Position numbers and translations under genes: made by a program. From assembly GCF_000497125.1 (NCBI RefSeq), contig NC_090597.1, positions 1,561,797 to 1,625,796 on the forward strand: 64,000 bases of DNA, in the 5' to 3' direction. The notes beneath the pieces were generated by a model. It ran no database searches and was not told the DNA's origin. It saw nothing but the letters and a program-made list of their open reading frames with translations. The DNA is from Spironucleus salmonicida. Its lineage: Eukaryota. Of this stretch, positions 1 through 43,103 are shown piece after piece; positions within the stretch are counted from its first letter, which is position 1; every line of letters begins with the position of its first letter.

Positions 1-487
1 CAGAGTTACGAAGATAGTGAAGACGGCGGCGCTGGTGCACGACATCGGCCACGGGCCATTCAGCCATTTGTTTGAACAGATCTTGCATAAAAACAACATC
101 AAACTAGACGGAAAGCAGATCTGCCACGAGAGCATCGGTTGTGATGTGTTCCGGAAAATGATGCAGCGTATCAAGATGGATGTGGGCATGGACGACCATG
201 ATATCGACTGTGTGTGCAGCTTGATTACGGGCCAGGAGGCCGACGACGAGACCTTCAAGAAGTACTTCTTCCTGAACCAGATCGTGTCCAACTCCGTCAA
301 CGGCTTGGATACTGACAAGATGGACTACCTGCTGCGGGACTCGAGGTCGGTTGGCTTGGGCCTCACCATCGACCCTATCCGCATTTTAAAAAACCAATCC
401 ATCTTCAAGTACCCCAAAGACAGCACTGGAAAGTACTACCTCTCGTCATCCCAAAAGACTAAGTTTGACATCATGCAGGTTTATCAT
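1..487 (+). repeat. GC-rich core identical (inverted) to 14608-15094
   Basis: Matches the reverse complement of 14608-15094. Identity stops abruptly after ...CAGGTTTATCAT and probably extends left of the window. Confidence 0.95.
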
Positions 488-1351
488 ACTAGGTATATTT
501 TAACAAAAATTATCTATTAAACATCTAAATCAATAGCATGGGATTTAATAATATTATACATATTTGAATAAGCGATTAAATTTAAATTAATTGATATTCC
601 AACATTATATAAACGTGATGTTTTACCAGATGATAGAATATTAGGATATATTTAATACTTACATTAATAAATGGATTGCCCTTATAAGTAATTATAAAAT
701 AAATTAGACGTATTAGATTATCATAATACACCTACAGTAGTGTTTGAGACTTCTATAACACATAATTGTGAGTTAACATAAAATATTTCCTCGGATATTA
801 GGGCTTAAAAGATTAAATAATTTATTTAAGATCAAACTGAATTATAAAGCAATTTGTTTGAAGTTGTTATATCAGATATAAAATATGGTGTAAAAAACTA
901 AAATCCATTAGATTTTTTACCTATTCATAACAAATAAACTGTATTTACTCCTACTAAATTTGCTGAATAATATGGAAGCAAATCGAAGCTATAATCTTAA
1001 TCAAATAGTACTAATGAAAATTCCCAATATCCTTAAACGCCTGTTAGACTTATGCCGCCAGTTTCCATAGATAATGCAGCTACCTAAGATATGTTAATGC
1101 CTAATATTTTTAAAGAAACTCTTTTGTACGTTTTCATTTATACTAATAATTTATTTTCGTAGAATCAGTTAAAGGAATCAATACAGAATTTTCTATTAAG
1201 CTAAAATTTAAATAATAATGAGAATAGTATTTAACTACTCACTGATAACTGTTTAGAATATAATGATATCGTACCTATTACCATATCCCCACTTCTTACT
1301 ACACATAATAATTTTCCTTTACCAGAAGACTGTAAATCTGATGATAAGTGA
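1..1351 (+). CDS. SAMHD1-like HD-domain dNTP triphosphohydrolase, copy A (5' end lies outside the window)
   Basis: Motifs ALVHDIGHGPFSHLFE, CHE and NGLDTDKMDYLLRD. With TAR=Gln the frame continues to TGA at 1349-1351 (AAG TGA). Confidence 0.9.
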
Positions 1352-1353
1352 GA

Positions 1354-3651
1354 TCACTTTTAATTCATTTTTTCACATTAGTTATAGATAGTTTATGCTA
1401 TTGCATCACTAGTTTAACCAAAATTACATCTTAATTTAACGGTGTCAATTCCTAAATGTACAATATCTACATAATTATTAAAACCAGCCTGTTTTAGTAT
1501 TTATGCCCGATTATTTCCTACTTATGGAATCTCTAATAATTCAGTAATATCATCTGAAATTTTTTCTTTAATTTAGTTAAGATATTTTTCAAATAACGAA
1601 TAAATTATTAATTTTCTTTGTTAAGCAAACATTTTAACTTGGAATAAAATGGTTGCAGGAGATTTTAGTTAAACATCATTAGAATTTGAAAAAGCTCGAG
1701 AAATATTTATTATTTACTGTAAAATGATATTCTTAATTGTTTTTTTATTATTGGATTATATTTATAATACTTCTAAAAGTATTTTATCTTATGATATTAT
1801 ATCATCCATATTAATTTAGTACTAAAATTCTACTTCTTATGATAAAAATGAAGAAAATGACTATTATGTCAACAAATGTAATAATGATGCTGGAGGAGAA
1901 TATGAGAATAGGAAAATAGAGACACTATCAAATGGATTAATACCATATTTCTTAATTTACTCAAAAAGCTGATCAAAATAATACGCCTAATAAGGGGATA
2001 AACTGGCTTCATTTGCTGCTTAACCTAATTAAGTCAGAGACAAATTTCCTTCTTATAATGCCAAGAATTTAATTTTTAACAAAAAATTAATATTTTCTAA
2101 ACAGTCAGCATTTTTAGTATCATTTTATATATGATATAGTGTTCGTTATAGACCAAAATTAAACTCCTTTTTGAACTGAAATGCATTGATCAAGATAGAA
2201 TTTATAGAATTATTTTTGTATTATTCTGTCAATAATAAACTTTTACATACAAATTCTTTTTTTACTTCTAGAATCTCGCTAAATACATTATCTGAAACAA
2301 TAAAAATAGCTGCATTTTACTTTCCTTCAAATCTTCCAGCTCTGCCAGTCATTTATTTAAATCTTACAGAATCAAGTTGCGACATACCAACTTTCAACTA
2401 ATTTATGAAAACTGACATAGCTGGAAGATTGACTCCAGCGGCCAATGTACTTGTAGCTATAATCGTATGTAGAATTCCATCAGAGTAAGAATTTTCTATT
2501 TTCATCCTATCTTACCCTGAAAGTGAAGCATTATGATAAGCTACACCTGCTAAAATTGATTATTGCTATTAATCTAGAGACTAATTAAGGATTTTTCTTG
2601 CTTCAGTTTTTTCTTCATTATTTAATACCTTGTCTTAAAAATTTTTAACCAGAAACGCTCCCAATTAATTCGCGAAATAAAGGCACTAATTACGAGTTGG
2701 AACAAACATAATAAGAGGTTTTGGAGCCATCACGCAAATTTTAAGCTAAATAGTTGCATTAAACGAATATTTGAAATAAAAATCTGAAATCTTTTAAAGA
2801 GTATCAAAGTCGTAAATTTGATTGTCATTAATAATAAATTTTTATAATTTTTATTCGGAATAATCAGTTAAAAATGTCTTACAATTCAACCATTATTCTA
2901 TATCAAGATGATTTGATAAAGTTGCTGACATAGTAATTAACTTTACATTGTGTTCTTATTAATATAGAAGAAAATAATTAATAAATGTCTCTAGAAGGAC
3001 TGATCTATCAGAATTTACTTCGCCTACAACTTGTAATTCATCTACTATTACTAGCCCTAAATTTTCTTATAGTCCTTGTTCATTGAATTTTTTCAGTATC
3101 TAATAAGCCTTTTCATTAGTGCAGATATAAATTGTAGGTTTTGTGGCTAGAAACTCTGGTAAATTACGCAGTCCACAAAGCCCTGATAATCCATAGTTTC
3201 CTGTTAAAAACTAAGAGAATTTATCTACCAATTCATTTACTATAGTTACATATGGGGCAGAAAATATGACACATTTTTTCTAGACTATCAATGTATATAA
3301 TGCAAAAATAACTGAAACATGTGTTTTACCAGATGCTGTGCCAGCAGATACAAGTAAATTATCTTTGCTTAGAAGGTTCTCTTGTAGAATCTATTTTTAC
3401 CATTGTCTTAACTTTTCTACACGTATATTTGGTGATAATGCATCAATCTATAACAATATATCTGATAATTCTAATTATTACTCGTCAATAAAAAAATCTT
3501 GGAAACTATACTATTCTAAAATATTTGGTAGATTAAGATAACCATAATCGGATTAAAATATACTAGACTGTTTTACATCTTCTGTCTCTGGTTCTATCTG
3601 GCTTAATAAATTCAATAAAATTTAATTATAATCATATTACATTCTGACCAT
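1354..3651 (-). CDS. Ski2-like SF2 DNA helicase (HELQ/Hel308/POLQ-helicase type), 765 aa
   Basis: Walker A LLVSAGTASGKT, IVDELQ, ATSTLAAGVNLPA, QMTGRAGR and a C-terminal HhH-like LLEIPQVG. ATG at 3651, TGA at 1354. Confidence 0.8.
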
Positions 3652-3685
3652 AGTATACGATAGTATTATATATAAATTAAGATTA

Positions 3686-5647
3686 TCATTTCCAACTATG
3701 CTAAATTATTTAATCAAATATACTGTTTTAAGAAACAATTCGCTCTCTGATCCATTTACTTAAAGAACTTATTTCATATTTGTACCTTTCATCCAATAAA
3801 ATAACATTTGCATAGTCACCTTTCCACCTTACAGCTCTGCCAATCGCTTGATTTACTAATCGCATAGCTTTAACATTGATGTTTCCTCTAGCTTTAACAA
3901 CTGGATCCCCAATATTAGCGAGTGGAATACCAACAATAACTAATAATCTACATAAATCATCTTTAAAATCTATTCCTTCAGATAAATTTCCACCTAGAAC
4001 ACCCATTAAAATAGAGTATTCCGTTGTTTTAAGCTCATCTATGCTATTTTTCGATTCAAAAAGGAAATTCTCACCATTACATACACTTTTAAATGTCTCC
4101 AGAACTCTTTTAGAAGGTAGAAAACAAACTGTTTATTATTTTTTATTAAATTTTTTTCTTAATTATTATAACATATTGCTTAATTTTACTAGATTATCAT
4201 ATGTTTAATTATTCAATGTAAACTTAACTTAATCGCAAAGTAAAACTTTTAAGGAATCTTTCTCAAGAACTGGATCACCTTCATATGTATTAAATTTTAT
4301 ATCAAATATATCTTCAAATGACTTAAATGGTTGCATTGTTCCACCTATTAAAATAATACTTTCCACATTACTAGCAACTTTAATTCTTGAATTTATAACA
4401 CAGACCCTCATCACTTCATTTATAACAAGAAGCATTTCTGAATAGTGATATTAAGAAATAATTGTAATAAATTTAATAATTTTGTAGAAAGTTGAATGAT
4501 TATGTGGAGAAATCCTATATATAAATCGTTACTACTGAAATAAATTTATCTGAGGTAAAATATTAATATCAAGTTTATTCTAAATAAAGAATTAATGTAA
4601 ATCATTATCTCTCAGTATCAACTCATTTTTAGTTCTTTTAATTACATTTTCTAGTTTTTTAGTGACTGCATATATTTAATTTATTAAGAAAATATGTTTA
4701 GCAACAATATAATCTCCTCTTCTCTCAATATATTACGAAATCTCATTATTAAATAATACTAAATCTTAAAGTTATATTTTAATATCTAAATTTTCATCTG
4801 CTAATGATAATAAATTGTGCGACTCGTCAGATATAATTATTTAGCTTTATCTTGTCAAAATAGACTGTTGCTTTTTTAACTCTTCAATTAAATTATTATG
4901 AGGCATAATCACTAAATCTGCCAAATAGGAAGCTTATTTTTAGGCATAATATGGGCACGCAGATTTTTTAATAGCATGTGATTTGGTTTCTATATAATCA
5001 TAATTATTTTTTAAGCAATCTATCATAAAGTTATGAATTTTTCCACTTTTTTTATATAAACAAGCTGTGTCTTTACAAAACTAATCTAGATCGAAAATAT
5101 CTTCAATATCACGCTGAGTATGAATACAGTATTAATTTCTACCCGCTAAAACAGATATTTTTAATTATTATAAATTAACATAATCATATTAAATCTATTG
5201 ACATTGCATATGCGTTCTTGAAGCGTAAATTATTGCCCCACTATTATTGGTATTACATAAAATCATAGACGAAATAATATCTGGAATTATTGAATGAAGT
5301 TCATCTAATGTTTTAATATCCTCAGATAAAGGAATAAAACCTTTAACATAATCATCTATAGCTTATGAATCTTTTTATGTCTATAGTTATTCATTTTCAT
5401 ATACAGTTTATTAAATCCATCCAGGTAATATTGGTTTAGGAATAACTGCACTTGGTCTTATTTAAAAATCACGTAGCTTTCTCAGATAATTATAAGTTGA
5501 AAATACTATCATTAATGATTTTCCAGTTCCTGTTGGGGACTCAATAAGAGCAGATTATTTCTATATATATTATTCTTCTAAATATTCCATTAGCTTGATC
5601 TAAATATCATACGGTTTATAAGGAAATTAGATATATTTGAGAGTCAT
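3686..5647 (-). CDS. XPD/Rad3-family Fe-S DNA helicase, CHL1/DDX11-like, 653 aa
   Basis: FPYKPYDIQ, ESPTGTGKSL, IISDESHN, GGTMQP, GGNLSEGIDFKDDLCR, NQAIGRAVR and ILLDERY. Confidence 0.85.
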
Positions 5648-5695
5648 TGTGTATACTAATATTTGAATATAATATATTAAATATATAAAATAATA

Positions 5696-6793
5696 ATGAT
5701 AAACTTTTATACACTACATATTTCAAAATTTAAGATCCGTTTTGAATCTATTTATCAGGAAATTAATGAAATTAATAATTAAGATAATATAGTGTTATTC
5801 TTTGATACAATATCAACATATGATCTTCCTTAATTAGTAAAAATTGATCCACATAAATTTAAATAATAATTTATGAACCTATTAGAATTATGCGACAATG
5901 AAGATAATGAAGACTATTTAATATTATTATAATAGTTTTCATGTTTAAATATTCTCCCTTTTTAAACATTTTTAGAAAGTATTAATATTCTTTCAACACT
6001 ATTTAAAAACTTACCTAAAACAGTCTTAATTATATCAAATTTAATAATATAACTTTAATTTTCATCAAATCATTTATAAAATATTTCAGAAAATTTATAA
6101 ATATAACTTGTAAATATATTGCTATAATAAGATAAATCATATTAACTTTTAGAAGATTATGGATTTATGGTTCTTCAAGCTATTAGACAAAATCCAAATT
6201 TTATAGAATTTATAGCATTAGTTTAAGATTTACTTTAATATGATAACGTAAATACACCATTCTCAGTATAAATATTATCTAATTTATATGAAATAAGTGT
6301 ATTTACACTTTTATAAGCTGCAGGTAAATTTAAGAACAGAATTATTTTTAAGATTTTATATGATCAATTATAGGAATATAAATAAACGCCTGAAATATTT
6401 TCTTAATTCTTGTAACTTTTCATCGAATCTTTTTCAGTAGAATATTCATAAATTCTTTCTGTACTTATTTAATCAATTACATACTATAGTCCATCTGAGT
6501 AATCATATTTTTCCTCTAGAATTGACATACTTGATGAATAAATATTAATTTTTGCTTTATCTTAATAAATTTTTTAGTAAGATATTCTGTAATTTTTATT
6601 TAAACTTGCAGTTTATAATATTAGATCACCATTAATATAGAGATTAAGAGGGCAAAACCTGACTTTATAGCTTTCAAAAATGGCGAAAAATGGTACCAGC
6701 TTAATTTTATAGTAATTATTTTTTGAACTTGATACTATTGATTTTTTTGATGAAATGTAACGAGAATTACTTCTTATTTATTTAGCATAGTGA
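5696..6793 (+). CDS. Hypothetical helical protein, 365 aa
   Basis: ATG after an AT-rich intergenic stretch, in frame with TAG TGA (AGTGA) at 6788-6793. Confidence 0.65.
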
Positions 6794-6828
6794 TTATTGT
6801 ATTCAATTATGTAATAAAAATAAGTATA

Positions 6829-7362
6829 TCATTTAAGATTAGACAAAGCTTGTAACAATTCATTTATATTCCAAGTATCAATGCTAATCTAACAGCTCAA
6901 AAATACTAATTCTGAAAGTTCTTCTATATACTCAATGCCCTATAATTTTGCTGCCTCTTCACAAATAAGTTTATAAAAAGTATCTGTTTTTTGACAGCAT
7001 ACGTAAACTAAGGTGCTATTATTAGCAACTGTTGCTATATGTTTGGCCTACTCCAAAGACTACAAATTTATAGGAATTATTGCAATATCAATCTACTCTG
7101 GAAGTTTATCACGAGAATCCGATGGAAAATCTATCAAAGTAAATTCTTTATCTGAAAAATTGAGTTTACCTGTATAGGAAGATGGGGCTGCTGATTTAAC
7201 AGTATGAGGAAGTTGACCTGAAATTAAAAAGTGAAAAAGTCTTGTTTTACATGTTTAGCCTAAACCTGTGATCACTATAGTTTTAGTATTATTAACTTTT
7301 TTTCTCAATAACAATAATAATGGTAACAACAACATCAGAGGTAAAATATACATACACTACAT
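6829..7362 (-). CDS. Signal recognition particle receptor beta-like small GTPase with N-terminal TM anchor
   Basis: Hydrophobic ILPLMLLLPLLLLLRKK, then IVITGLGQTCKTRLF (degenerate P-loop), TVKS and LIDFPSD. Confidence 0.65.
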
Positions 7363-7428
7363 TTTTTTAGAGAGGAACTAACCTCAAAAGTAATCTTTTT
7401 ATTAATATATTATAGATTAATATTAAAA

Positions 7429-8229
7429 ATGACTCCAATTATTCTGATGATTTTTCTCTGGTTTTTTGTATTCTTCACTTCAAAAACTTATTTCTCTAAG
7501 TAAATTATTAGTAACAATTACTGCCTGATTACTGGGGCCACAGGTAATGTAGGGTTAGCTTTATCAAAATAATTGCATCTAAAAGGTGCAAAACTTATTT
7601 GTACTGGTAGAGACGAATCGAAGTTATTATTTTTGAAATAGGCATATAAAGCCATAACAATATAATTTGACATTAATGATGTGGAAAATTTTCCTAGTGC
7701 ATTTGAATAAGCTTTAAATGAGTATAAAGTTAATTAATGCGAAGTCAAGCACGTATTTTTAAATCATGGTTATGGATATTTTGGTTAGTTTGTCAAATAA
7801 AATAATATTTAAAGATACTTATAAGTAAATCAGTATTCATTTATTGTATTAGCGCATTATTTATTATAATCGTTTTCCCTAAATTCCATCACTATTACAT
7901 CATCATGTATAGCATACATTCCTAGCTAAAATTACACGCTTTACCATATTTCAAAAAGAGCTATCTCTTCGTTTGTTAAATCTCTTAGAAAAGAAATGAA
8001 GAATGTCAATATATCTGCAGTACATCCTGGAACTATTAATGGTCCATTTTTCGATCATTCTGGAATGGAAAATTCTCAATAAGGAATTAGAAAGTTAGGA
8101 TAGTATAAATTTTTCAGTTCAAGTCCGGAATATGTTGCGAAATAACTTATTTATAGTGCTGAAACAGGCAAAGATTTAAATCCATCCCTTATTTCAAAAT
8201 TGTTAAAGTATGCTCAATTTTTATAGTGA
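7429..8229 (+). CDS. Short-chain dehydrogenase/reductase with N-terminal signal anchor, 266 aa
   Basis: LITGATGNVG (TGxxxxxG), LNHGYG, catalytic YHISK (YxxxK) and VHPG. Confidence 0.85.
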
Positions 8230-8240
8230 AAAATTTAATC

Positions 8241-8771
8241 TCATCTTATTGATTTACCAAAATGTTCTTTAAAGAATTCTCCCCTTTACTTATCCGCCTC
8301 AACTTCCTGCAATTTATCATGTTGCTGATTTATTTTTTTTTGTTAAATTTAACTTAATTAAACAGCTCTTAAATATTCTTAATATTCCTTCATTGCAGCA
8401 TCTTTCTCTTTGTCCATAATTTATTCATATTTTTCCCTTTCTATCATCTCCTATTCAAGTCTCATTTCTATAAGTTTTTCTTGAACAATTTTTTCCTGAT
8501 AAATTCTTTAATTTTACTACAACTCATTATGGTATTAAGCCATAATTTGTTATTTCTCTTCAGCAGTACCATGGAGCTTTTTAAGCTACAATTTTTCAAA
8601 CTCTGCAAAATTTTCACGTTTTTTTTCGTCTTTTTCTTATGAATTTCTGAATTCTACAGGACCATTTTCTGCTACTGATTTACCATAAGATTATAGTATT
8701 GGACGCTAAGTAATTTTCTATAAGCGTTGATTATTGTAAGCTGTGCGAGATACTGTAAAATTAGGCTTCAT
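8241..8771 (-). CDS. Hypothetical charged coiled-coil protein, 176 aa
   Basis: ATG at 8771 in frame with TGA at 8241; E/K/Q-rich. Confidence 0.7.
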
Positions 8772-8861
8772 GATTTTTGGATTAATTAGTATTTAGTAAT
8801 ATTAATACATAATTCTATTTATTATAAAATATACTTAAAAATAATATTTAAATAAATAATC

Positions 8862-11300
8862 TCATTTTTCGTCAACTTTGACTGCAAGACCATCAACGTT
8901 ATTTATAATCTAATCAACAAACTCAAAAGTTTTATCTTTAACATCGCCGAGTACAGCAAAAATCAAAGGGAATTGAAATTATTAATAAAACTATGCATTT
9001 GGTCTAAAACTATCACCTGCAACAAGCCAGTATGTAAGCGGTGTAAAAATTTAGTATATTTTCGCTTATTTCTCTATTTAGCTATCAAACTCTGTGTTGT
9101 TGTTTTAAAAATAGAATAAGCAGCAACTAGAAAGCTCAAGTAGTTTGTCTAAGCATGCTAGTTGAAATTATCCATTATGTGGTAAAAATGCTACACTTTT
9201 GATATTTTTTATTTTGGTAGAAAAGAAATTACCATAACTATTAAAATATTGATCTACATCTCCAAATAATGAATAATATTATGATAGATACGTGTTGAAT
9301 GGTGATGAAAATAATTCTTATGTAAAACCTTATATATTTAATTATTTATAAAGAAGAGGTGGAATTGAAACTTAAAATGAGGAACCTTCATTAATTTTTG
9401 GCTTTTATTCTTTAGAATAAACAAACTAGGAACCATTAAAACTAGAATATCTCCGAAATAAAATAAAAAGTCGTAATTTAAAATGATCAAACGAAGGATC
9501 AAAGTTACTAACCTGATAAAGCTAAACAAGTTTTAAAAAATAATTTTTAGAAATTATAAACTTTTAATCAAACTTGTTTAATTAGGTAAAAATCTTAAGT
9601 GAATTTGCATAATCAGGTCTATTATGATCTGGATTTATAGATATTATATAATGCTTAGCCTAGTTATTTATAAACTAGTTAATATTGAAATGTTCAAAAG
9701 TGCATGGTTGATTTTAATCATTTACTAGATTAATAACAAATGATTCGTCCAAACAGCTATTAACATTATCTGTATTCATTTCGTTAATATCTTTATAAAT
9801 CTCTTCGATAATTTCAAAGATAACTGTTGCAAATCTCTATCTAGCAAAATTTAAATTTAAATTTTTAGCCTCAGTCAACTTTTTAACTCTAAAATGATCA
9901 GGAATTAAGTCAGTACGATATTTTTTGATTTATTGCTTAAATGTTGAGTAAATATTTTGAATGTTTTAAGGCTATGATTATATTGAAACGTCTTCTAATG
10001 CAAGAAATTCTCTAGATCTGTTCTATAATGCCAATAACTCATCATTTAACTTTTTTTTATCAATATTTTCATAATTAGACCTAAGTTTAATAGGTATAGA
10101 AGAGATCAACTCTTAAAAAATAGCATTATTCTCAGGCTATAATTTATTAATTACAAGAAAATTTTTATCGCTACTAAACTAATTTATCTGGTATAAGAAC
10201 TACACAAATGTATCTTTTGGTAGATCAATATGTAATTTTTATCTCACTAACATGTTTAGCTTTTCTCTTATGTTATTAATTTATATTGCAAACAAAAGTT
10301 CTTATATCAAAGGTTATTCGTTATCTATTTTAATCAGTTCTATTTCACTTTTGGCTAATGATCCACTAATATTAGCATTTAGAATTGGTATATAGCGTTA
10401 CTATCTAGGATTCATTATGAGAAGTGAAAAAATATAATCTATAATATAAATATATCAGTTAAAGTCTTCAAAGAACACATTTTTGCAATCCGTCATTATT
10501 TTTAACTTTAATCCCATTGGAGTAAATATTGCTACTACTCCATATAATTATTTTTCGGATTTAAAGATATAAGGTCCGTGAATGACTAGCCGATCTAACA
10601 AATAATTTATAATACAGAATTCAGTATTATTTAATACTACTAAAAAATTATTCTAAATATAATACCTCGATACATTAATCGGTACGAATTAAGTTAGTTC
10701 GATTTCTTTATTTGTGAAATAAAAATACTATTTTTCTTATAATACTTTAAAACCATGAAAATTTTGACTGAAAATGATCTAATCTTAAGTTTATATCTCA
10801 GATTATATATAATTTTCACCAACTTTCATTAATTTTGACTAAAATATGATATTCCTTCTCTTATAAGTTACTATTTATTCAATATCATCAAACTAAAATA
10901 TTGTCACAAAAGTTGATATTACAAATTGGTGATTATTAGTAGAGATACTTAATAATCCGCTTTAAGTTAAAAATAAATATACATCTTTAGTGATAGAATG
11001 AACTTATACCAATTTACCTTTTACAAATTTATTATTTTCATCTGCTTATTTGGTTTCTAGAGTTTTAACTGGTTTATCCATGCTAAGATGCTAATTATTT
11101 CCTAACCTATCTCGTTCTTTATATTATCTTTTATTTTACCCTATATTTTCAGGTAGCATACGTCTCCCACTACTATACTCATGTCGGTTCAATGAATATC
11201 TTTCATTATAATGAAAATTATCTACATTTCTGTTACTACCATAAGCCCTGCTTTATTTCACTACAGGTAAATCTTTAATTGACACTTGGCCTTTCTCCAT
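8862..11300 (-). CDS. Hypothetical protein, about 812 aa
   Basis: MEKGQVSIKDLP...NVDGLAVKVDEK*. Start and stop are in frame; no recognised domain. Confidence 0.65.
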
Positions 11301-11478
11301 TATCAAATTTAAATTAACCAGAATTATATGATAATTAAATCTAATTAGTTCAGAATTCTCATCCCTTTATTATCAAGAATTATTTTACTCCTACATAAAC
11401 TATTATTATATGAAAATTTATACCATAATTTCACTCAACTTATCCGTGGTCCTGAAACGCTCTCACTCTACTCCACTC

Positions 11479-12774
11479 TCATAAAAATACATCAACCCCA
11501 ATAGCCTAGATTCTACTCTCGTAAACACGTTACCCTTCTAAAATGCAACCGCCCTCCTTCTGTACTACTTGCAAAACCATATCTCCGCAAATCGTCAGCA
11601 TCTACATGTTGAATTTTACTGCGACTTTTTGGATATCAGAAACACCTTTAGCAGTTACTGCAAAACTAAAGCAGAGCTTCCCGATTTGGGCTCGAAATTT
11701 TGTCGATTTGACTTGCTAAAAATAACTGAATGGAATGCCAATTTGAGAGGTAAATTTGGAAGAGCTGACGTTAATTTACGTAGATTTTGTCAAAATTGTG
11801 AAAAAAGGTTGGTCAAGCTGAGAAATGAGAAATGTGTCATCTGTAATTTCGAAAAAGTTGTCAAACCCGGATAAATACGAAGGAAAAACTATTTAACACT
11901 TATTCGATATAATAGTTGGTGTTTCATTTTGTTCTTGCTACAAAATGATTTTGTCAATTTGGACGCAGTTCTTGGTTTAGTAGCTGTAAAGTATTCTGAT
12001 TTTATTGTCTATCTCCTCTAAGGCAATTGCTGATATGTATCCTTCAATTTTTATCTAGTGCATAATTTTAAATTCTTCTATATTGTATAAAATCAGCTCG
12101 TTTTCGCCAAATATTTACTTACCGTTTTCATCGAACTTAATACTATTTTACCCTATTAACAGAAAGTTTCGTGTTATTTTTACACATTAAATAACGTTTT
12201 TATGTTCAATTAACTGCTTACACTCAGTGATAAAATTAACAATTTAGTCACGATTCTTACGCTAGTTTGTTACTGAAAAATCAAACAGATAAAGACCATT
12301 CAGAGTAGAAAATACTAGTCTAGAATCATAAAAATCAGATGCAAATATAAAATTGAAAGGGAAAAATGATTTTAAATTGTACTCCTCAATAAGTTTGAAT
12401 GAATTCTAATGATCAAATACTTGAAGTTTCTGCTATGAAAATGATATTAATAATGGTGAATCAGAGTCGCTGTTAGCTAATAACCATTAAGGTTTTATTA
12501 GAGTTCTCTCAGGTTCCTCTACTTTTTCTCGCTTTGGAAAAAAAGGCTTAGGAGATAGCTTTAACTTTGTTTCTTAGCTTTTAGATCTTATAAATGGTTT
12601 ACGGCCTTCATCAATCGATTTAGGCGGAAATTTCTGAGTATGTAATTTATTATCAGTCTAATCTTTCTACTTAAAGTCATTAGTTCGTGGTCTATTTATT
12701 CTTTATAATCGTGGCTCTCTAGCCTAATCTTTAAGTCCTCTAGTAAAAATCTCTGGTTGCGCTGCGGAATCCAT
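11479..12774 (-). CDS. Hypothetical protein, 431 aa
   Basis: MDSAAQPEIFTRGLK...ESRIQAIGVDVFL*; no in-frame TGA in the lines checked. Confidence 0.7.
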
Positions 12775-12825
12775 ATTTTTAAAAAGTTATTATATATTAA
12801 AAGTTATATAATGATAATAATTTCA

Positions 12826-13707
12826 TCATTATGTTAAATAAGATTTTAATAATTAAATTTCCTATGGCCAATTTTCTGGCTTTGTTGTCTCTAAGCAATA
12901 CACTGAATTGATTCTCTAAGAAAACAAATTCTTAAATTCATTCTTTTAATGCTTTCCTTATTGTAGCGGAGCGTGTCGATCGACCTTAGAATTGTACTCA
13001 GTCAGCGAGTCATTTATGTGGAACCCTTTCAAGTACGATCTACCTATAAGTCTGTCAAAATTTTGAATCAGCTCAACTGAGAAATTGTCTTTGTTTGCAT
13101 ATCCTCCCGCAAATGTGTGCTAGGTATCTATGCAGACACCGATCCTATTTTGATCGCTGATATGATCTATTATGTTCTTAATCTGCTCAAAACTGCTCCC
13201 TACACAGCTTCTAACTTTGTTCCCAGCCATGGTCTCTAACACAACTATGACATCCGGAACTATTTTATGCGCCTCGTTGATCAGATCCCACACGCACTCA
13301 ATATTGCTCCCCGTTCCAGGATGGATATTGAGCAGATCCAATCCCATGGACCTTACCACGAACATTTCGAATACAAGACGTCGAAAAGATGCTTCTCTGA
13401 CTCTCTCTTATTCAGATGCTAGATTTAATAAATACGGTCCGTGAGGTAAGAATTAATTTCGATAAAATTTAAGTTACAACGCTTAATCATAGAATAACTA
13501 ATATTTATCTGATTAGATTTTTACATTCCAAGATTACGGCGTTGTAGTGAAAAATGCTGCGCTTTCAGCTTTTAGATCCCTCATTTCTTTAAAAAGATTT
13601 GATAACGATAAATGAGCACCAATATATATTCCCTCCTTGAAATCTAATAGATCAGAATATTTTGCAATATCATACGCTGTAATAAACTATACATCTTATT
13701 CAGACAT
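12826..13707 (-). CDS. Endonuclease IV (Nfo/Apn1-type AP endonuclease), copy A, 293 aa
   Basis: YIGAHLS, LPHGPYLLNLAS, NIHPG, LETMAG, RIGVCIDTQHTFAGGY, FHINDS, VDRHA and LET: the EndoIV metal-ligand motifs. Confidence 0.92.
12974..13395 (-). repeat. 422-bp core, inverted near-identical copy of 42531-42952
   Basis: Base-by-base comparison gives 421/422 identity; the single difference is at 13212/42714 (Arg vs Gly). Confidence 0.95.
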
Positions 13708-13737
13708 TAAGTAAAGTAATATATTATACAAATTAAA

Positions 13738-15333
13738 TCATTATTCATCAAATTTAAAATTTAATGGGTTTAACTCTTAAGATGACGTCAAGGGCGAAAT
13801 AGCTCTAGCTTATAAATTTTTATTTGGATCGTCGAAACTAATTTCTGCATTTAAAAGATAATTAGCCTCATCTGTAATCATATTATTTATGTTCAAAAAT
13901 TTATTAATTGCACTTTTTAATTACTCTTTAATTTAGCTTTACACTTCTGGGTATATAAAAACACAAAAACAAGTTTCCTTAAAGATATTAGGCATTAACA
14001 TATCCTGAGTGGCTACGTTATTAATAACTACTGGACGCGTAAATTTAGCAGGAGTTTATGACGAAAGAGATTTACTAGTTTTAGAACTAATACTTCGAGC
14101 AATAGATTATGCTCTATTACCGTATTATTCCGCAAATTATGTTGGTGTAAATACAGTTTACTTATTATGAATTGGTAAAAAATCTAGTGGGTTTTGATTT
14201 TTAACGCCATAATTAATATCAGCTACAACTACTTCAAATAGTTTACTATCAACATTAGAAATTTTAATAAGTTATTCTTTTGCATATTACTCACGTTGTT
14301 AGGAGGAAACTTTTTCAGTTAACTTACAATCTTTTGTTATTGAAAGTTCAAAAATTATATCTGGCGTCATATGATAATTTAAAATTTAAAAACTTTTACA
14401 GAGTTCTTTATATTTTTGATTTTAATCTTCAACTTGTAGCTATACATAATATAGAATTCTGTCATCAGGAAGTGTATCTTTTCTATATAATTATCCAATA
14501 TCCAACAAATTTGATTTAATTGAAGCATCAAAAATTTTACAAACTATTTCATTAAATGCTAATATTTTCGAGTTTAAGTAAATAATTTTATTAAGCACAT
14601 ATCTGGAATGATAAACCTGCATGATGTCAAACTTAGTCTTTTGGGATGACGAGAGGTAGTACTTTCCAGTGCTGTCTTTGGGGTACTTGAAGATGGATTG
14701 GTTTTTTAAAATGCGGATAGGGTCGATGGTGAGGCCCAAGCCAACCGACCTCGAGTCCCGCAGCAGGTAGTCCATCTTGTCAGTATCCAAGCCGTTGACG
14801 GAGTTGGACACGATCTGGTTCAGGAAGAAGTACTTCTTGAAGGTCTCGTCGTCGGCCTCCTGGCCCGTAATCAAGCTGCACACACAGTCGATATCATGGT
14901 CGTCCATGCCCACATCCATCTTGATACGCTGCATCATTTTCCGGAACACATCACAACCGATGCTCTCGTGGCAGATCTGCTTTCCGTCTAGTTTGATGTT
15001 GTTTTTATGCAAGATCTGTTCAAACAAATGGCTGAATGGCCCGTGGCCGATGTCGTGCACCAGCGCCGCCGTCTTCACTATCTTCGTAACTCTGTCGCTC
15101 AGGCTCTCGGGCAGCTGGGCATTGAGGTGGTCTAGCGCTATCTTCGTCAGGTGGTACACCCCGAGCGAGTGCTCGAATCTGGTGTGATTTGCACTCGGAT
15201 AAACAAGATATGCCATTCCGTTTTATCTAAGATGTCTTAATCTTTAAAACTGTGGTGTTTTTATTATTTTATAAGCAAAATCTTCTAGTTGAATACTATT
15301 ATACACAGGATCTTTAACTTCTTTCAGTGTCAT
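13738..15333 (-). CDS. SAMHD1-like HD-domain dNTP triphosphohydrolase, copy B, 531 aa (no SAM domain)
   Basis: KDPVY, TPQFQRLRHLRQNG, YPSANHTRFEHSLGV, HDIGHGPFSH and DTDKMDY. ATG at 15333, TGA at 13738. Confidence 0.92.
14608..15094 (-). repeat. GC-rich core identical (inverted) to 1-487
   Basis: Reverse complement equals positions 1-487. High GC persists to about 15200, suggesting the shared tract is longer. Confidence 0.95.
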
Positions 15334-22707: not shown

Positions 22708-22751
22708 TTGGTCAAAAGTGGATTACGAGTATTGTACAATAATACAGATTT

Positions 22752-32270: not shown

Positions 32271-34814
32271 ATGAATCACTATGATTTAGCTAAATTATTT
32301 CTTAACAACCCTGGCTAATTAGAGTATTAATGTAACGCTACTAGGTAGGAACTAAGATAGTTATTATTTCTTTAATCATAGAAAGCTTTATCTATATAGC
32401 AAGGAATATAGTAAATTTTAAGTAGTATGAAATAGGCTGAAGTATATACTGAAAAATTGAAATAGTATAAACAGTATGACTTATAATTATTAGAATAAGT
32501 AGGATATGCATTGAATGCCGCCAATTTAACAGCAAAACTACTTAAAAATTTATGCATGATTCCAATACAGGTTACTTAATTAAAACTGAAACTCCAAGAA
32601 GGTGGATACTCTTAAATTTAGTAATAGATAAGGGCCATGTAATAAGACATCTCCGATATTAAGCGTATGGCATTTATATATTAAAATGATCTAAAAACTA
32701 ATAATAAATTTATTTAATTTGAATAAATGTAAAAAGTAATATAATCTTTTGATTCGTACTTCCATATGTTTGATATATTTTAAGAATCGACATAAGATTG
32801 GCTTATTAAAAGGGCTCCCAGTGAAATACTATTATAAGTATCAAGAGGATATGAACATTTCTTAGATTCATATATACACATATTACTATAATAAGAGAAA
32901 ATTGAGCCGCTTTCGTTAGGAGAAATTTGGAAAAATATCTCATAAACAATTTATACTACCATAGGTTAATATTTTACATCTATAGATTTTTTAAATATAG
33001 ATTTTAAGTTATTAAAAGAGACACTTTTCTAGTATTATTAGATTATTGATTAAATTATTGGTAAATTATTTGAGTTTGATGCGCCTCAGTATATTTTAAC
33101 TAATTATGGCACATTGCATTATTCATAAAAATAAAATCTCTCATTTCATAGCCACTTTCCAATAAAAAGAGTATATGCATGTGCAATCCATAATTTTTTA
33201 TCATTGAAACTTCTTGAATTTGTATCTTTTAAAATTAATAATTAGTAGTTAAGTGTAGATTTTATTGTAAAGTTATTTGATTTTGTTGAAGTTTACAATA
33301 ATTTTCTTATCAAATACAAGTTTAATTATACAGTATTCCAACCGATTGAATTACTAAAGTTATAGTAGTTATAGATTGATCCCCCATTTTCATTTAATTT
33401 GAGGCCTTATTAGTTGATATAGATTATAAATACTGGATAATTAAAAGGAGGCAAATTTAATAGACAATAAAATTATTCTTTAAAGTCAGTATAATAACCA
33501 TTAATTGAAATTGCAGAGCATGCTTTTAAATTAACTTTTGATGATTTTTGGAATGATAAAACTTCAGATATTGAGAGAATATAAATTTTAGAATAAATTC
33601 AAGGCAAAGATTTTTTTGTTCAAGGCTTAACTCTAGAATCGATATCATAGGGAATAGAGGAGGAATTTAAAAAATCTATTAAATAAAAATTCTTTTCTCT
33701 TATTTAAACAGCCACGAGCGAATACTCTAAGACACTTGCAAGTCCGTAGTAATTAAATAATAAATTTAGAACAACAATTCCTTCCGATTTTTCTTCCATA
33801 TTTAATATGAATTTAATAGGCGATAATCATTCATTTACTTAAATTAAGAAATTAAACTTTATTGTATTTTAGGAGGCTTCTGATGCTATATACCAAACAG
33901 CTGCGTAACTTAATAAAAAAATATAAAGCTCTTTACCAAGACTAAATTTTTAGTCATTAATAGGAATTTCTGATAACCTTTAATTTAAAAATTTCTTTTT
34001 TGAATCAGACTATAAGAAAACTAGTAATTAAAATCTATTTAAAGTTCTACTACGAAACTAATAAAATACAACTAACCAACTTAATATTTAAAGGAAATAG
34101 GAGATTGAATTCAAGGATCCAATTCACAAAGAAAATTAATTTGATTTTTTACCACTAAATTCTTTAATTGCTTTGTGTAATGATTTTTTTGTATTTTAAT
34201 AAATGTTATAGAACTTAAGTTTAAAAATCGATAATTAAGATTCTGATGATGTTTTATAAAAATCTGCATTTGCTTGTATGGACGTTATAACATCTTGTTG
34301 TGCAAGAATTTCATATATTATATGTTAAAAAAATACTCTGAATAATAAAATTCTGAAAATTGCATTCTAAGATACTGAATTACGTTTAGAACCAATTTGT
34401 AATAATATTTTTAGATAATAGTATGTTAAAACTACTTTTGGAGTTGAATTTGCATAATTTTTATGGAAAATGATAGAAAATAAAAAATTAAATGAGCTTG
34501 ATGACAATTATATTGATATCTATGGAGAATTCGGGAAAAAACTAAAAGAATTGGAAGAAGTTTGTGTAAGTATTAAAATCAGACCAAATGATCTTAAAAA
34601 CTGTATTGATGAACTACGGATGTTCTAATCACGAGAAATTAATTATCACATGAGCCTGATAAGTATATGTGTTTATTTTGCAAAAAATGATCAAAACTAT
34701 GAGGAATTTATTCAATAAAAGGGAAAATCTAAAATAAAAATGGTACAAGATTGGAATTTTTATAGAGATTGTGGCGTCGTTGAAAGAGTAGTTAAGAGAT
34801 TTATCGAAGAGTGA
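32271..34814 (+). CDS. Helical-rod protein, possibly exocyst Sec6-like, 847 aa
   Basis: Long frame ending GAG TGA. N-terminal coiled coil loosely like Sec6; the family call is weak. Confidence 0.45.
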
Positions 34815-37056: not shown

Positions 37057-37272
37057 TCATTATATAATTATATCTGTCTCATCGTTTATTTCTGTCAAAG
37101 AAATGTCATTAACTAAAACAAATATATGATCATTATATTATAGATCAAAATGGTTGACTGTTAACTTTAATAACATCTCATCAGAAAAATTATTATCCTC
37201 GATTGTGAAACCTTTATTTTCTTAAGGTTTAAAATTGTGAGGTGACTAAAATGGTGTCCAAGTATTCTTCAT
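37057..37272 (-). CDS. Possible small acidic protein, 71 aa
   Basis: MKNTWTPFQSPHNFKPQENKGF...ETDIIIQ*, ending AATGA; short and without homology support. Confidence 0.35.
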
Positions 37273-37370
37273 TAAATACGTACGATAATTCTTGTTCAAT
37301 AAAATTCTAAAGTGTAAAATACTTTAATAAATATATTTATATATTAATAATATAATTTTCAAATTTCTAA

Positions 37371-39677
37371 ATGCAGATCGGAAAATTTGAGTTATTATAG
37401 TGGGCCGCACCATTAAATACTACCCCATAAAAATGGTCTGATATTAATCCTCATATGTATTACAAAATTAATTTTTTATTTAAAACATCATTCTCACCAC
37501 TTTCAACATCAGAGGATTATAAATTATTTTTCTATTCCAGATAGGTACCAGAAATTTTAGATTGGGATGCAATTGAATAAGGGCGAGGTAGAGCAATATT
37601 TAATTTTTTAGCCTTTTTATACGTTATTGAATCAATAAAAGATGGAAATACAGCTCCTATTGAATTTGCTCTACCAGTGGACTAAAAGATCACTGATTAT
37701 TTAGAGTCACCTGATGTATTAAAATTATTATAAATTTAAATAATGTCACCTTAAGTTTAGATTTCAAGTTCACACCAAAAATCTATATCCATTTCATAAA
37801 CCGACGTGAAATTAGATAATTTTTTAACAGAGATGGATTCTTTAGTTCCAAATTTAGATGAATCAATAAGAGATAAAGCTCTATTAGCCTCTAGAGTATT
37901 GTAACGTGCAGTAGAACATGATTTAGATAAGGAATACTTAGATCAAGATTGCTAAACAGATATTTCTTATCGTGATCTTTCCAATATTATCATGAAAACA
38001 TAGCAAAATACAAATGATTCTGTTTATACTGAATTATTATAAGAAAATATGGCACTAAAATAGTAAAACAAAAACTACGAAAAATTAGTGGACTTTTATC
38101 GCAGCTAAACACATGATAAGTTAAACTATAATTAATAATTTTATTAAACTATTTCACAATTATAAAAATAATCAATTTCTCTTGATCTTATATAAGAATT
38201 ATAGATTGAAACCTTGGCTAATGTAAAGGTGTAAAAAATTATATATGAAAATATTTTAAAAATTAAATCTGCGCTATAAAATGAAGGTTTAAATATGTAT
38301 TAAAAATATGAAATTTTCATTTAAAAAGAATAATTAGAATAAAGTTAAGTATCTGAAACACAATAAATTGTTGATTCATTCTCATAGTTAAGTTAATAAG
38401 TATAATTATTCAATACTAATATTTAAGACAATATAGAGAAGATGGTTGATTTAACTAAACATGTTGATATAAGTATAGATTAAAAACTTGAAGGTTTATG
38501 TTAAGAAAATAAACTATTATAAAATACAATTTCTATATTAGATAAAGATAATACCTAGTTAAAGCAGTTAAATGCCTAACTCATTACTAATACAAACGAA
38601 GATATAATGAAAGATCTTCAAACTGTTTTAATAAATAGTTCTGGTATCGAACTAACAGCATCTCTCATACAACTTACGTAGAAATTTTAATATTATATCC
38701 ATAAATTTTCATTTGTATAAGACAGTTATACAAAGAAACTTAAAACTCTTAATTTAATTAATCTAGATAAAGAAGATATGTAGATTATATAATAATCACT
38801 TGATTAAGAACCAGAGGTCTTGTTTCAAAATTATGAGCTATAATTTTCAGATAAATTTAAAGATATTCTACAAACTTTGGGAATAAATTGCACATATTTT
38901 ACCTCTTCTCCAATTTAATTTGACAATATTCCTCTAAACTAAACAATTAATATAATTAAATAAATTGAAAGCGATGGTATACTCCTAAAAGAAGAATCAT
39001 TATAGTTATAGTCTTCTACTTATAAAAATTAGATTGAATAGTTAATACTTATAATATCTCAAATTTTGAAACAATTTACGAAGTTTAAAACTGAATTTAA
39101 AAATAAGCATCAGTCTTTAGTTAAAACCTGCAGAAACTTATAGATGTAATTAGTTAATAGGTCAGAAGAAACATCTTAGATGTTTACTTAGAAGCTTACT
39201 ACGACAATTACATAACTTAATATTAATAAAGATGAACTTGAATTTTATAAATAAAAAATAACATCATAATAATAATAAATTACTTAGTTAATATAATCGT
39301 AATCTTTATCAGAATAAGCATAACTAGAGGCTAAAAGACTCTGGTAACGTGTTAAACAGCAAACATAATGTTTAGATTTATTTTAAGATGTTACTGATTA
39401 ATTATTAAGCAATAATACATTTAATATCTAGTAAAAATTATAAGATATAAATGCTATCAGAAATTAAACAATTTAATTTGCTGAAAAATCTGTTTTCTAA
39501 TGTGAAAGTTTATTAGCAATAGAAAGAAATCGAGCTGATTTAGAAAGAGAAAAGTCATCTGGCCTTAGAAACTAGATTGCTAGTCTGAAAAGTGAAATAT
39601 TGGTTCTAGAAGAATTACTCTAGATGACAAAGTAAGACTGTAATAAAAGCATAGCAATCTGTTTCTAAGAAGAATGA
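37371..39677 (+). CDS. Long coiled-coil protein with globular (possibly CH-like) N-terminus, 768 aa
   Basis: MQIGKFELLQWA..., then Q/E/K heptad-rich; ends GAA TGA. Confidence 0.7.
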
Positions 39678-39704: not shown

Positions 39705-41921
39705 TCACTTCCATTTTGAAAATTCTATATATATTTATTTTGTATTTAAAATCATACAATCTACTATTTCTATTTCTACTATTTCTTCTTCTATTTAATT
39801 AAATGTTTGACAAATAATACGTAGTAAAACAGAATCGTCTTCATTTATATCTCCATACATATCTCCAACTAATCTTTTTATTAACATCAAATATCCTTTA
39901 AACTACAATATTTATTAAAGTTTTAATGACAAAAATAGAGCTTAAACAGCATTGAGTTTTTCACTTAATCTAAGTATATAATAGGTTTAAATCTAAAATA
40001 AAATTTAGATTAAAGTTTAATCTTCAATCTTTTAATAAAACAGAATTAAAAAATCTCCAATTCTTTCGGCATCACATCTTGTTAATTTAAGTGTTGATAT
40101 TGTCAATAGTTTAAATATTTCGCAAATTTATTATTTACGTCCTGATTAAAGATGGAAAATTAAATAATTAACTAAAGAATCGAAATGCTACCTTGTGGTG
40201 CATAATATAAATTGGCTTATTCTTTAGACTTCTAATGGAGTATTAACTTGGAATGGTAAGAGATTGAATATCTAGCTAAAATTTAAGACATCTGAGATAT
40301 TAAACAAATGTTTTTAGCTATAAGAAAGTGGAAGTAAAAATGGAACATTTTACCCTTATAGTTTATATGATATATGTATAGACTAACCATCATAAATCCA
40401 TAATAAATCATTTTTAGTTAATGTAATTAAATCCGACAATTCAATATCATTACATCCAGGAACAATAAGATATTACGAAAAGTTTTATATATCTAATGAA
40501 AGTAAGGTTTAATCTAATGTAGCAAACTACTTAAATAACTTTTATAATATAATGTTATTATCCATCAGAGTACAAATATCTACCTACCTTTAAACACTGT
40601 CAGTGAATTTATTTTACTAAAATTCTGCTGTTAACCATATTAATTCTCTAATTGCGAAAACTCCTAAAATATTATGATTATTAAGGCTGCATTCAAACTA
40701 TACTACTAAAAATAATTTTATCTCATTAAGTTAATACTAATGAACAATTCTAAGCAAAAATATTACTGAATTTTATGTTGATTTTTATATTTTTCCTTAT
40801 TAATAACAATCAAAATCGAGATTTGAATATAAAAAAATAATAGTTGATAAAAGAAGCTCTTATGGACTATTAGCTAATATTATATAAATAAGCTAAGACA
40901 AATCTGTTAAGAGAATTTTTTCGGCATAAAATTTCCCAGCTTCGATAAATGCTAATTAATGTAATTAATAAAGAGAATTTGTAAATTAGTTGACATTTTA
41001 CATATTAACCCTACTAAATGCATCTCTCAATAAAATTTTAATACCAGATTCTAAATATAAAATTTATTCAGAATTTTTAATAAATTATATTTATCCTGCA
41101 AAATCTAATTTAATAAAATTTGAACTATTTTATAACATATCTAATGTATATTGTGGTAAAGTGTTAAATATACAGAACTGATAGTCCAAATAACAAGCTA
41201 ATGAAATTTAATATATATCTTCGTCTAATGCTTCAGACTTATCTTAGCCTAATTTTTTCTTAAGTAACTGCTTACAATTTATTAAAAATTATGGATCTCC
41301 GGAAATAAATTTTAAGCATTACTAATATTTAAGTGAATAATAAATAAAAATGTCCGCTGGAATATATTCAAGTTCAAAATCTAACTTAGAAAAAAAGAAA
41401 CTTTCCACTAAGTTCTAGTTGAATTGAGCCTTCAAGTATTCATTTATATTAAATTTAAAATGTATCGAAAGAGAATGTTCTACTGTTTTAAGAATAGCCA
41501 TTTTTTATATCATCAGAATTTTATTTTGCGAAATATAAAAATTTTCAAATAAATCTTTAAAACAATATTAGTCTAGCTAAAACCATATATTTATTTAATT
41601 ATCTGCCAGTAAATGTATTTGTGAGCTTTTGAATAAGAATTCTAATATAGACTGATCCAGGACCTATTCATTTTTAAAATAATAACTTTTCAATAAATAT
41701 AACAATTATGCTGGAGAATCAAACATAATCTAAAAATCTTAAGGTATATTTTCAGACATAAGACGTAATTATAGTTTCTAATTTAATTCTTTTTTCGGAA
41801 CTCTAGTAAAATAGTTTATAACCTCTTAAACATATTATTTTGTTGTATATTTTGATTACTTCAGCAAATGATAACTATCTTACAATAAATTTTTTGAATT
41901 TAATATTTATTCTCCTATCAT
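39705..41921 (-). CDS. Hypothetical helical protein, about 738 aa (alternative in-frame ATG at 42119)
   Basis: Frame ends ...EFSKWK* with AAGTGA; the start was chosen downstream of an AT-rich promoter-like stretch. Confidence 0.6.
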
Positions 41922-42235
41922 TACGAATGAAAGGAAAAATAATTAGTATTTCTATATTATATTTATAATAAATTGCAAATATCTTTTAATTAACTTATAG
42001 CCAATTTGTGATTATAATTACATGTTTTTATATTTAGTCATTGCCTGATTTTCAGAAATATCAATTTATATCTTTATAACACTTAAGAGTCCTATTGTAA
42101 AATATTTTAGCTCCAACATAGTAAGTATTTCCAGATTCAAGCATACTACGGTTAATATTATCTAAAATAACAGTTTTATATATTAAAATAAAATATTATT
42201 ATAGTATAATTATAGTATATTATATTGCTACTAAA

Positions 42236-43103
42236 ATGGATAGTCTAGATATTTCTTTTATTACTACAGAATCTTATCCTGAACTCTTGCCTTGTAAATT
42301 AGGTACATATATAGGAGTTACCGTTTAGATAGATAATGTATTCTAATAAATTCAATAATTGGAAGCAACGGCAGCTTCTTTTTTCTTACTCATAATTCTT
42401 AGTAAGTAAAAAAAAACAAAATTATGCGTGTTTTTATTAGCATGCTTTATTAAAAAAACTATTTACAAATTAATTCTTGCCACATGGGGCGTATATTATA
42501 AATTTAGCCTCAGACTATGATATAATTCGTGAAGCATCTTTTCGACGTCTTGTATTCGAAATGTTCGTGGTAAGGTCCATGGGATTGGATCTGCTCAATA
42601 TCCATCCTGGAACGGGGAGCAATATTGAGTGCGTGTGGGATCTGATCAACGAGGCGCATAAAATAGTTCCGGATGTCATAGTTGTGTTAGAGACCATGGC
42701 TGGGAACAAAGTTGGAAGCTGTGTAGGGAGCAGTTTTGAGCAGATTAAGAACATAATAGATCATATCAGCGATCAAAATAGGATCGGTGTCTGCATAGAT
42801 ACCTAGCACACATTTGCGGGAGGATATGCAAACAAAGACAATTTCTCAGTTGAGCTGATTCAAAATTTTGACAGACTTATAGGTAGATCGTACTTGAAAG
42901 GGTTCCACATAAATGACTCGCTGACTGAGTACAATTCTAAGGTCGATCGACATGCATCAATTAATGAAGGATATCATAAATAAGATGAATTTTAAAGTTT
43001 ATTTTGCTAAAATATTTTATCCGTATATTGCCTAGAAACTAGAAAACCAGAAAAATGGAAGTATGAAATAGCTCTTTTAATAAGTTATACAAAAAATATT
43101 TGA
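42236..43103 (+). pseudogene. Endonuclease IV copy B; 5' part out of frame (pseudogene or homopolymer sequencing error)
   Basis: ATG 42236 (MDSLDISF...YIGVTV...AASFF) is in a different frame from LPHGAYIINLAS onward. The break falls at the T6 (42379-42384) and A9 (42408-42416) runs; span is 868 nt. Confidence 0.75.
42531..42952 (+). repeat. 422-bp core, inverted near-identical copy of 12974-13395
   Basis: 421/422 identity; the flanks are diverged and AT-rich. Confidence 0.95.

Follow-up and report, generated by a model that had tools for sequence, protein, structure and literature searches.

A 64,000-bp stretch of the Spironucleus salmonicida genome (assembly GCF_000497125.1, contig NC_090597.1, positions 1,561,797 to 1,625,796 of the forward strand), which we refer to as the window, includes two pairs of inverted paralogs. 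One pair, named SAMHD1-A and SAMHD1-B, encodes HD proteins related to SAMHD1, and the other, named EndoIV-A and EndoIV-B, is related to the genes for endonuclease IV. The subject of this report is the core of each pair, a block of several hundred nucleotides within the catalytic part of the genes that is the same, or nearly the same, in both copies. Only 12 open reading frames (ORFs) of at least 100 amino acids are found in the window under the bacterial code. When TAA and TAG are read as glutamine codons and TGA as the sole stop codon, long ORFs follow one another across the whole window with no sign of introns and with spacings of tens of bases (such as 12774 to 12826, 13707 to 13738, and 15333 to 15497). 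The 'FQRLRHLRQ' motif of the HD protein uses TAA as glutamine, which supports this reading of the code. In the same way, the 'CIDTQH' motif of endonuclease IV uses TAG, and glutamine is also found at this position in the closest relative (P0124). This code, the tight gene packing, and the Giardia proteins among the best matches described below agree with a hexamitid diplomonad that uses the Hexamita-type code. The overall G+C content of the window is 27%; according to the 2014 genome paper, the whole S. salmonicida genome has a G+C content of 33.4%, contains three introns, and has short spacers between genes (PMC3916229). The components of the four genes outside and around the cores are as follows.

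488-1351, forward strand: diverged 3' part of SAMHD1-A, ending in a TGA stop codon, with 49% amino acid identity and 43% third-position identity to SAMHD1-B.
12826-13707, reverse strand: EndoIV-A, an intact gene of 293 amino acids (P0001), identified by Pfam AP_endonuc_2, a structure match, and a probable RNA contig at 12861-13695.
13738-15333, reverse strand: SAMHD1-B, a gene of 531 amino acids plus stop codon (P0002), identified by translation, Pfam HD, and SAMHD1 structures.
42236-43103, forward strand: EndoIV-B, with its N-terminal part in another frame according to the three-frame translation.
42379-42384, forward strand: run of six T residues at the EndoIV-B frame switch, which amounts to one base; frame 0 follows EndoIV-A up to ...AASFF and frame +1 follows it from ...SYSQF.

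The SAMHD1-B product matches the Pfam HD family with an E value of 1e-10 and SAMHD1 structures with E values of about 1e-34 over residues 2-391. Among the relatives of the HD protein that carry a name, the best match is a dGTP triphosphohydrolase from Giardia muris. On the basis of their domain and their similarity to SAMHD1, SAMHD1-A and SAMHD1-B are predicted to be deoxynucleoside triphosphate triphosphohydrolases of the SAMHD1 type. The full SAMHD1-A protein (P0004, 527 amino acids) is encoded on the same contig and is identical to SAMHD1-B from 'YLVYPSANH...' on. The identical portion, or S core, corresponds to SAMHD1-B residues 42-241 and includes the H..HD..D motifs. The 3' part of SAMHD1-A has a third-codon-position G+C content (GC3) of 0.17 and includes 22 TAA or TAG glutamine codons.

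EndoIV-A matches Pfam AP_endonuc_2 with an E value of 1e-30 and the E. coli endonuclease IV chain 1qtw_A with an E value of 9e-35 (residues 28-292). The histidine, glutamate, and aspartate positions that are invariant in the alignment of the EndoIV proteins (alignment A1) fit the TIM barrel of endonuclease IV (Nfo/Apn1), and the metal ligands are expected to be among them. Most of these invariant positions are located within residues 105-244, which correspond to the second repeated block, or E core. An earlier note on this DNA had described EndoIV-A and SAMHD1-B as neighbors 30 bp apart on the same strand, as is indeed the case: SAMHD1-B (stop codon at 13738-13740) is found 30 bp upstream of EndoIV-A (ATG at 13707).

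The same note had mentioned a frameshifted 5' part in one of the EndoIV genes, and the three-frame translation places the switch at the T run of EndoIV-B. The N-terminal 49 residues are encoded in one frame and the remainder in the next. Public annotations of EndoIV-B include only products of 180 or 255 amino acids, and the 255-amino acid frame matches Pfam AP_endonuc_2 with an E value of 2e-27. When the EndoIV-B flanks are compared with those of EndoIV-A, conservation is highest at the second codon position, followed by the first and then the third, in both parts of the gene. Because of this order, constraint on the protein seems to have acted on EndoIV-B during most of its past. The break in the frame would be either recent or a homopolymer error left uncorrected in the assembly, and EndoIV-B is, as far as can be judged from its sequence, probably a pseudogene or a truncated gene. 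The window includes only three small tandem repeats, one of which, an AT-rich 21-bp repeat (42156-42226, 3.4 copies, 73% matches), is located immediately 5' of the EndoIV-B start codon.

The long repeats in the 64 kb consist of two inverted pairs only, in addition to two short diverged pieces from the 3' parts of the SAMHD1 genes. A second repeat search of the window recovered the same inverted pairs and no direct repeats. The extended arms of the pairs are 1-654 and 14441-15094 (90% identity), and 12838-13506 and 42420-43088 (87% identity). The repeat searches and the alignments agree with the order, coordinates, orientations, and interlacing of the S and E cores given in the earlier note, as well as with its description of near-identical inverted blocks inside the catalytic part of diverged paralogs. 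The core features are the following.

1-487, forward strand: in-window part of the SAMHD1-A core; 487/487 identity, G+C content 0.50, GC3 0.75.
12974-13395, reverse strand: EndoIV-A core, 422 bp; 421/422 identity, coincident with a 422-nt DNA contig, GC3 0.48 versus 0.23-0.29 in the flanks.
13212, with partner 42714: sole difference between the E cores, found by alignment; the contig letters at this position differ between runs.
14608-15211, reverse strand: SAMHD1-B core, full 604 bp; coincident with a 604-nt DNA contig, 201 codons without TAA or TAG, GC3 0.75.
42531-42952, forward strand: EndoIV-B core, 422 bp, defined by alignment; GC3 0.48 versus 0.10-0.25 in the flanks.

Pairwise alignment of nucleotides 1-487 with the reverse complement of 14608-15094 has a match at every one of the 487 bases, and in successive 60-base blocks beyond the S core the matches drop to 44/60, 35/60, and 37/60. 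Nucleotides 13395-12974 and 42531-42952 match at 421 of 422 bases, and the E-core flanks have about 32-43 matches per 60 bases. Outside both blocks the nucleotide identity is ~60-65%, and the edges are marked by an abrupt step. No short repeated sites marking the core edges were found. The full S core is 604 bp in length and its left copy is cut by the start of the window, with 117 bp located to the left. This was apparent from a contig of run X6, probably an RNA run, which joins base 1 of the window to base 15095 on the opposite strand and includes 117 further bases (15095-15211).

The cores also stand out by their composition. The G+C contents at the first, second, and third codon positions are 0.48, 0.29, and 0.75 in the S core and 0.34, 0.28, and 0.16 in the 3' flank of SAMHD1-B. 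GC3 values in the S flanks as a whole are 0.15-0.17, and those in the E flanks are 0.10-0.29. Glutamine is encoded in the S core by nine CAR and no TAR codons, as compared to five CAR and 18 TAR codons in the 3' flank, and the combined share of glycine, alanine, arginine, and proline is 0.14 in the S core versus 0.13 in the flank. In both copies, and at every edge within the window, the step in G+C coincides to the base with the step in identity. The G+C rise is confined to the homogenized tract and affects almost only synonymous sites.

The flanks of both paralog pairs have amino acid identities of 39-55% and third-position identities of 40-47%. The latter values are close to the level that AT-rich composition alone would produce, and the flanks appear to be old. 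The 3' flank of the SAMHD1 genes provides an internal control, as it includes two peptides, of 24 and 14 amino acids, that are identical in both copies. The DNA encoding these peptides differs at 12/72 and 6/42 bases, respectively (18/114 in total), all of the differences being synonymous, and the GC3 of the 24-amino acid stretch is about 0.1. In the S core there are no differences at all in the 162 codons compared within the window, or in the 201 codons of the full 604-bp block. At the rate of the control peptides dozens of silent differences would be expected in the S core; therefore selection at the protein level is not the cause of its identity.

Junctions and copy number were read from contigs of public sequencing runs, placed on nucleotides 1-20000 of the window; the EndoIV-B region (42-43 kb) is located outside this portion. 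The contigs are word-based and end at the core edges, and the flanks of repeats of 422-604 bp cannot be phased with them. X1 and X3 are DNA runs from one sample, which is possibly the source of the assembly, and X5 and X6 belong to a second study. Runs X5 to X8 were taken as RNA by guess, since no run is recorded as such. Holes in the cover, such as X1 beyond 16 kb or X6 at 14008-14674, were given no evidential weight. In X1 the S core is a 604-nt piece (14608-15211) with a depth of 323.5, as compared to 147-177 for the unique pieces, which gives a copy number of about two. A 12,546-nt piece (458-13003, depth 151) ends 30 bases inside the S core on one side and 30 bases inside the E core on the other. 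The E core is a 422-nt piece (12974-13395, depth 408), and a 1272-nt piece (13366-14637, depth 163) lies between the two cores. A 24.5-kb contig from the same run overlaps nucleotides 15182-15211 and continues with letters that, when translated, correspond to the N-terminal flank of SAMHD1-A. This contig graph is that expected from exact two-copy repeats, each with four different flanks.

Contigs from X5 and X6 also cross the junctions between cores and flanks. In the case of SAMHD1, the core is continuous with the 5' flank of SAMHD1-B in X5 and with the 3' flank of SAMHD1-A in X6; both genes are represented in these contigs, the 5' flanks not being phased with the 3' flanks. An 835-nt contig from X5 (12861-13695) includes the 3' flank of EndoIV-A, the whole core, and the 5' flank of the same gene. 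It is the only contig that crosses a whole core, and its flanks are parental, so that the form observed in this probable RNA run as expressed is the parental one. The EndoIV-B flanks do not form a branch in it, being absent or too rare. At position 13212 the EndoIV-B letter is present in the DNA contigs of X1 and X3, and the EndoIV-A letter in those of X5 and X6, which are probably RNA.

We consider it likely that recurrent non-allelic and probably GC-biased gene conversion has maintained the identity of the catalytic cores in these two ancient inverted paralog pairs. A tract of identity that includes synonymous sites, a rise in GC3 within that tract, and a number of copies of about two make up the pattern that is given by non-crossover conversion. 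The first two are observed directly, together with the edges and the junctions, and a depth of about two copies is observed for the S core. That the two copies of each core recombine with each other, as the earlier note had supposed, is strongly implied by these data. We infer that the conversion has been recurrent and mostly non-crossover, and that it is probably GC-biased. A break or a nick in one core would be repaired from the other copy, located 14 or 29 kb away, without a crossover. The heteroduplex would stop at the flanks, which are only ~60% identical, or longer conversions would be selected against, and in either case sharp edges would be generated. Mismatch repair of the heteroduplex would favor G/C, and with purifying selection acting on the protein only the synonymous sites of the core would be driven to high G+C. 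The interlaced inverted layout would be incidental and not a device.

Five points weigh against GC-biased conversion as the explanation. First, there is no gradient of identity or G+C at the four visible edges, and slow erosion should leave an intermediate zone; the step edges fit recurrent conversion limited by selection or by divergence, and they also fit a single recent block copy. Second, a change in GC3 from 0.16 to 0.75 with two copies would need a strong bias, with a scaled value estimated near 2.8. Third, we infer the direction of change, from AT to GC, and the sole difference (13212) cannot be polarized. Fourth, the depth of the E core is 2.3-2.8 times that of unique pieces in X1 and about 2-4 times in X3, which exceeds the expected twofold. 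Protein searches and a cluster look-up returned only the two EndoIV genes of the window and no third annotated copy; a third, unannotated E-core copy is possible in view of this depth and of the EndoIV-B letter found at 13212 in the DNA contigs. Fifth, G+C content alone is no proof of conversion because whole single genes are also GC-rich, namely that for uL16/L10e (59993-60619, forward strand, G+C content 0.44, GC3 0.40) and that for a Hip/ST13-like TPR co-chaperone (21871-22842, reverse strand, G+C content 0.47, GC3 0.55). The richness of these two genes probably has another cause, expression-linked codon usage.

It is possible, although unlikely, that each core is the product of a one-off block replacement, copied once and recently between the paralogs or derived in both from a third copy that was later lost, and that the GC-rich codons have a separate cause such as codon selection or older history. 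The razor-sharp edges in both copies, without an intermediate zone, would fit such an event, as would the near absence of differences (0 for the S cores, 1 for the E cores), and the E-core depth above twofold could indicate another copy. On the other hand, the GC block and the identity end at the same bases in donor and recipient at all visible edges, and a single copying from a donor with its own composition would not be expected to give this coincidence twice, in two unrelated families. No third annotated copy was found, and the S core is present at about twofold depth.

There is a small chance that, besides undergoing conversion, the cores are live crossover substrates, so that up to three isomers (the assembled order, a 14-kb flip, and a 29-kb flip) would be present in cultures. 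If so, the SAMHD1 termini would be exchanged and the sole intact EndoIV 5' end would be placed before either 3' end, and the locus would be a recombinase-free analogue of a shufflon, driven by homologous recombination, in a eukaryote.

The proposal of the earlier note went further, to a shufflon-like region in which crossovers within the cores would flip the 14-kb and 29-kb intervals, swapping SAMHD1 C-termini and placing the intact or the frameshifted EndoIV 5' part before either 3' part; to act as such a system, the flips would have to be frequent enough. The geometry on which it was based is correct: the repeats are inverted, in frame, and interlaced, and a flip of one pair does turn the other into direct repeats. 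Furthermore, 422-604 bp of perfect homology are enough for homologous recombination, and the same intermediates can be resolved either as conversion or as crossover. To vary surface proteins, bacterial shufflons and the invertible segments of the Rci and Hin/Gin types use short crossover sites together with a site-specific recombinase of their own. The S and E cores resemble them in that inverted repeats within coding sequence could exchange protein termini; unlike them, the repeats are long catalytic cores of housekeeping enzymes, for which there is no evident gain from terminus swapping, and there are no short crossover sites. In agreement with the earlier note, which had recognized no recombinase gene, no recombinase, integrase, or transposase domain was found in the 51 window ORFs scanned (12 + 39). 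In addition, EndoIV-B is frameshifted, and the probable RNA contig described above keeps both parental flanks of EndoIV-A together with the EndoIV-A letter at 13212. A flip of either pair would be a hazard rather than a design, because the other pair would become direct repeats around housekeeping genes, some of them essential, and a deletion between such repeats would be lethal. Genes located in the intervals include those for two helicases, a short-chain dehydrogenase, a PCIF1-like protein, the large subunit of DNA primase, the Hip/ST13-like co-chaperone, tubulin chaperone D, an aldo-keto reductase, and a PHD-finger protein. A terminus-swapping system is consequently unsupported, and we regard it as quite improbable.

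Acquisition of the GC-rich cores by lateral transfer from a GC-rich donor into resident genes is very improbable. The codon usage of the S core, with no TAA or TAG glutamine codon in 201, is unlike that of the rest of the gene and would be compatible with such an origin. However, the E core includes an in-frame TAG at a glutamine position of 'DTQH' that is also glutamine in its nearest relative, P0124 (44% identical overall), and with respect to the bacterial homologs both have two extra residues after 'ETMA' and lack two after 'GGYA'. Because of this shared glutamine and these two shared insertions and deletions, which set both proteins apart from the bacterial sequences, the E core is considered native. 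Moreover, the amino acid composition of the cores is not shifted, two unrelated genes would require two transfers, and among the matches obtained none was much closer to the core than to the flanks. Finally, that truly different cores were made identical by collapse or consensus during assembly or polishing, as can happen at identical repeats in long-read assemblies, which are generally known error spots, is barely credible here, since the DNA contigs include one core piece at about twofold depth, in which the S core shows no alternative letter and the E core a single one, each edge is left by its own unique contigs, and contigs from the second study (probably RNA) cross the junctions, so that within nucleotides 1-20000 the core-flank junctions are carried independently of the window, with the caveat that the two DNA runs are possibly the source of the assembly and thus not fully independent of it.

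Recurrent conversion would make these loci a further example of a known phenomenon and not a new kind of system. CYP21A2 and CYP21A1P are a gene/pseudogene pair that undergoes conversion. EndoIV-B resembles the pseudogene member in being a broken copy, one part of which has stayed near-identical to the working gene; unlike that pair, the break in EndoIV-B is located outside the converted tract, and as a consequence conversion does not spread it. A closer likeness is found in the mosaic concerted evolution of BMP8A/B, DDX19A/B, and TUBG1/2. The report on these mammalian pairs describes raised GC3 and stable mosaic boundaries in the converted parts of old gene pairs that have evolved in concert for more than 100 million years, and considers the GC3 rise in the homogenized part a hallmark of GC-biased conversion (PMC2720389). 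The S and E cores are alike in the homogenization of part of a gene, the sharp boundaries, and the raised GC3, and the S core also in the presence of about two copies; one of those pairs is also inverted and far apart. The differences are that the cores described here belong to a diplomonad-like protist with a reassigned code, that GC3 differs far more between flank and core (0.16 versus 0.75), that the 43 kb hold two interlaced pairs unrelated to each other, and that they are known from one genome.

Duplicated regions of S. salmonicida average 44.7% G+C versus 30.7% elsewhere, and gene conversion is mentioned in this context in the study that reported these values (PMC9509377). The cores are similar in that near-identical duplicates are much GC-richer than the AT-rich compact genome around them. 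The survey set a length of 2000 bp at 95% identity as the minimum for a match, and the tracts described here, of 422 and 604 bp inside diverged genes, are below this threshold. Searches of the literature on biased gene conversion and codon usage in diplomonads led only to the genome papers cited here, and these searches revealed no account of the two loci. The cores represent a very clean, small-scale case of GC enrichment linked to conversion: GC3 rises from 0.16 to 0.75 at one base step, a G+C step coincides with the identity step in two pairs within 43 kb, and sexuality and recombination are matters of debate in the group to which the host belongs. If such tracts are general in the genome, they could provide a fine-scale explanation of the GC-rich duplicated regions and a route to measuring how strong biased conversion is in a diplomonad. 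With regard to annotation, the identical cores of these paralogs should not be treated as assembly errors, and EndoIV-B should be regarded as a probable pseudogene.

Several observations concern the contigs and the remainder of the window. Ten single-base insertions or deletions are found in X3 only (2067, 4871, 5047, 6719, 6742, 8333, 9205, 10051, 15844, and 17340) and not in X1 at a depth of 151; they are probably errors of the low-depth run X3 and not of the window. A joint from 5178 to 12613 present in one X1 contig was discounted, as its side was only 20. No tRNA genes and no Rfam families were found in the window. Next to SAMHD1-A there are two helicase genes arranged tail to head (1354-5719, reverse strand), one Ski2/HelQ-like (DEAD/Helicase_C) and the other XPD/DDX11-like (DEAD_2/Helicase_C_2), and the gene for the large subunit of DNA primase occupies nucleotides 20514-22046. 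With these genes and those for EndoIV and SAMHD1 the window is rich in genes for DNA metabolism, which may be due to chance. A 960-amino acid ORF (15497-18379, reverse strand) has a RING-like tail rich in cysteine and histidine and no Pfam match at 1e-5, and other long ORFs without an assigned family are found at 32271-34814, 37251-39677, 39705-42308, and 50439-54293. The uL16 protein of the window has its best match with chain 7pwg_I (E value 5e-98, followed by 1e-84 for the next match), and we take 7pwg to be a Giardia ribosome.

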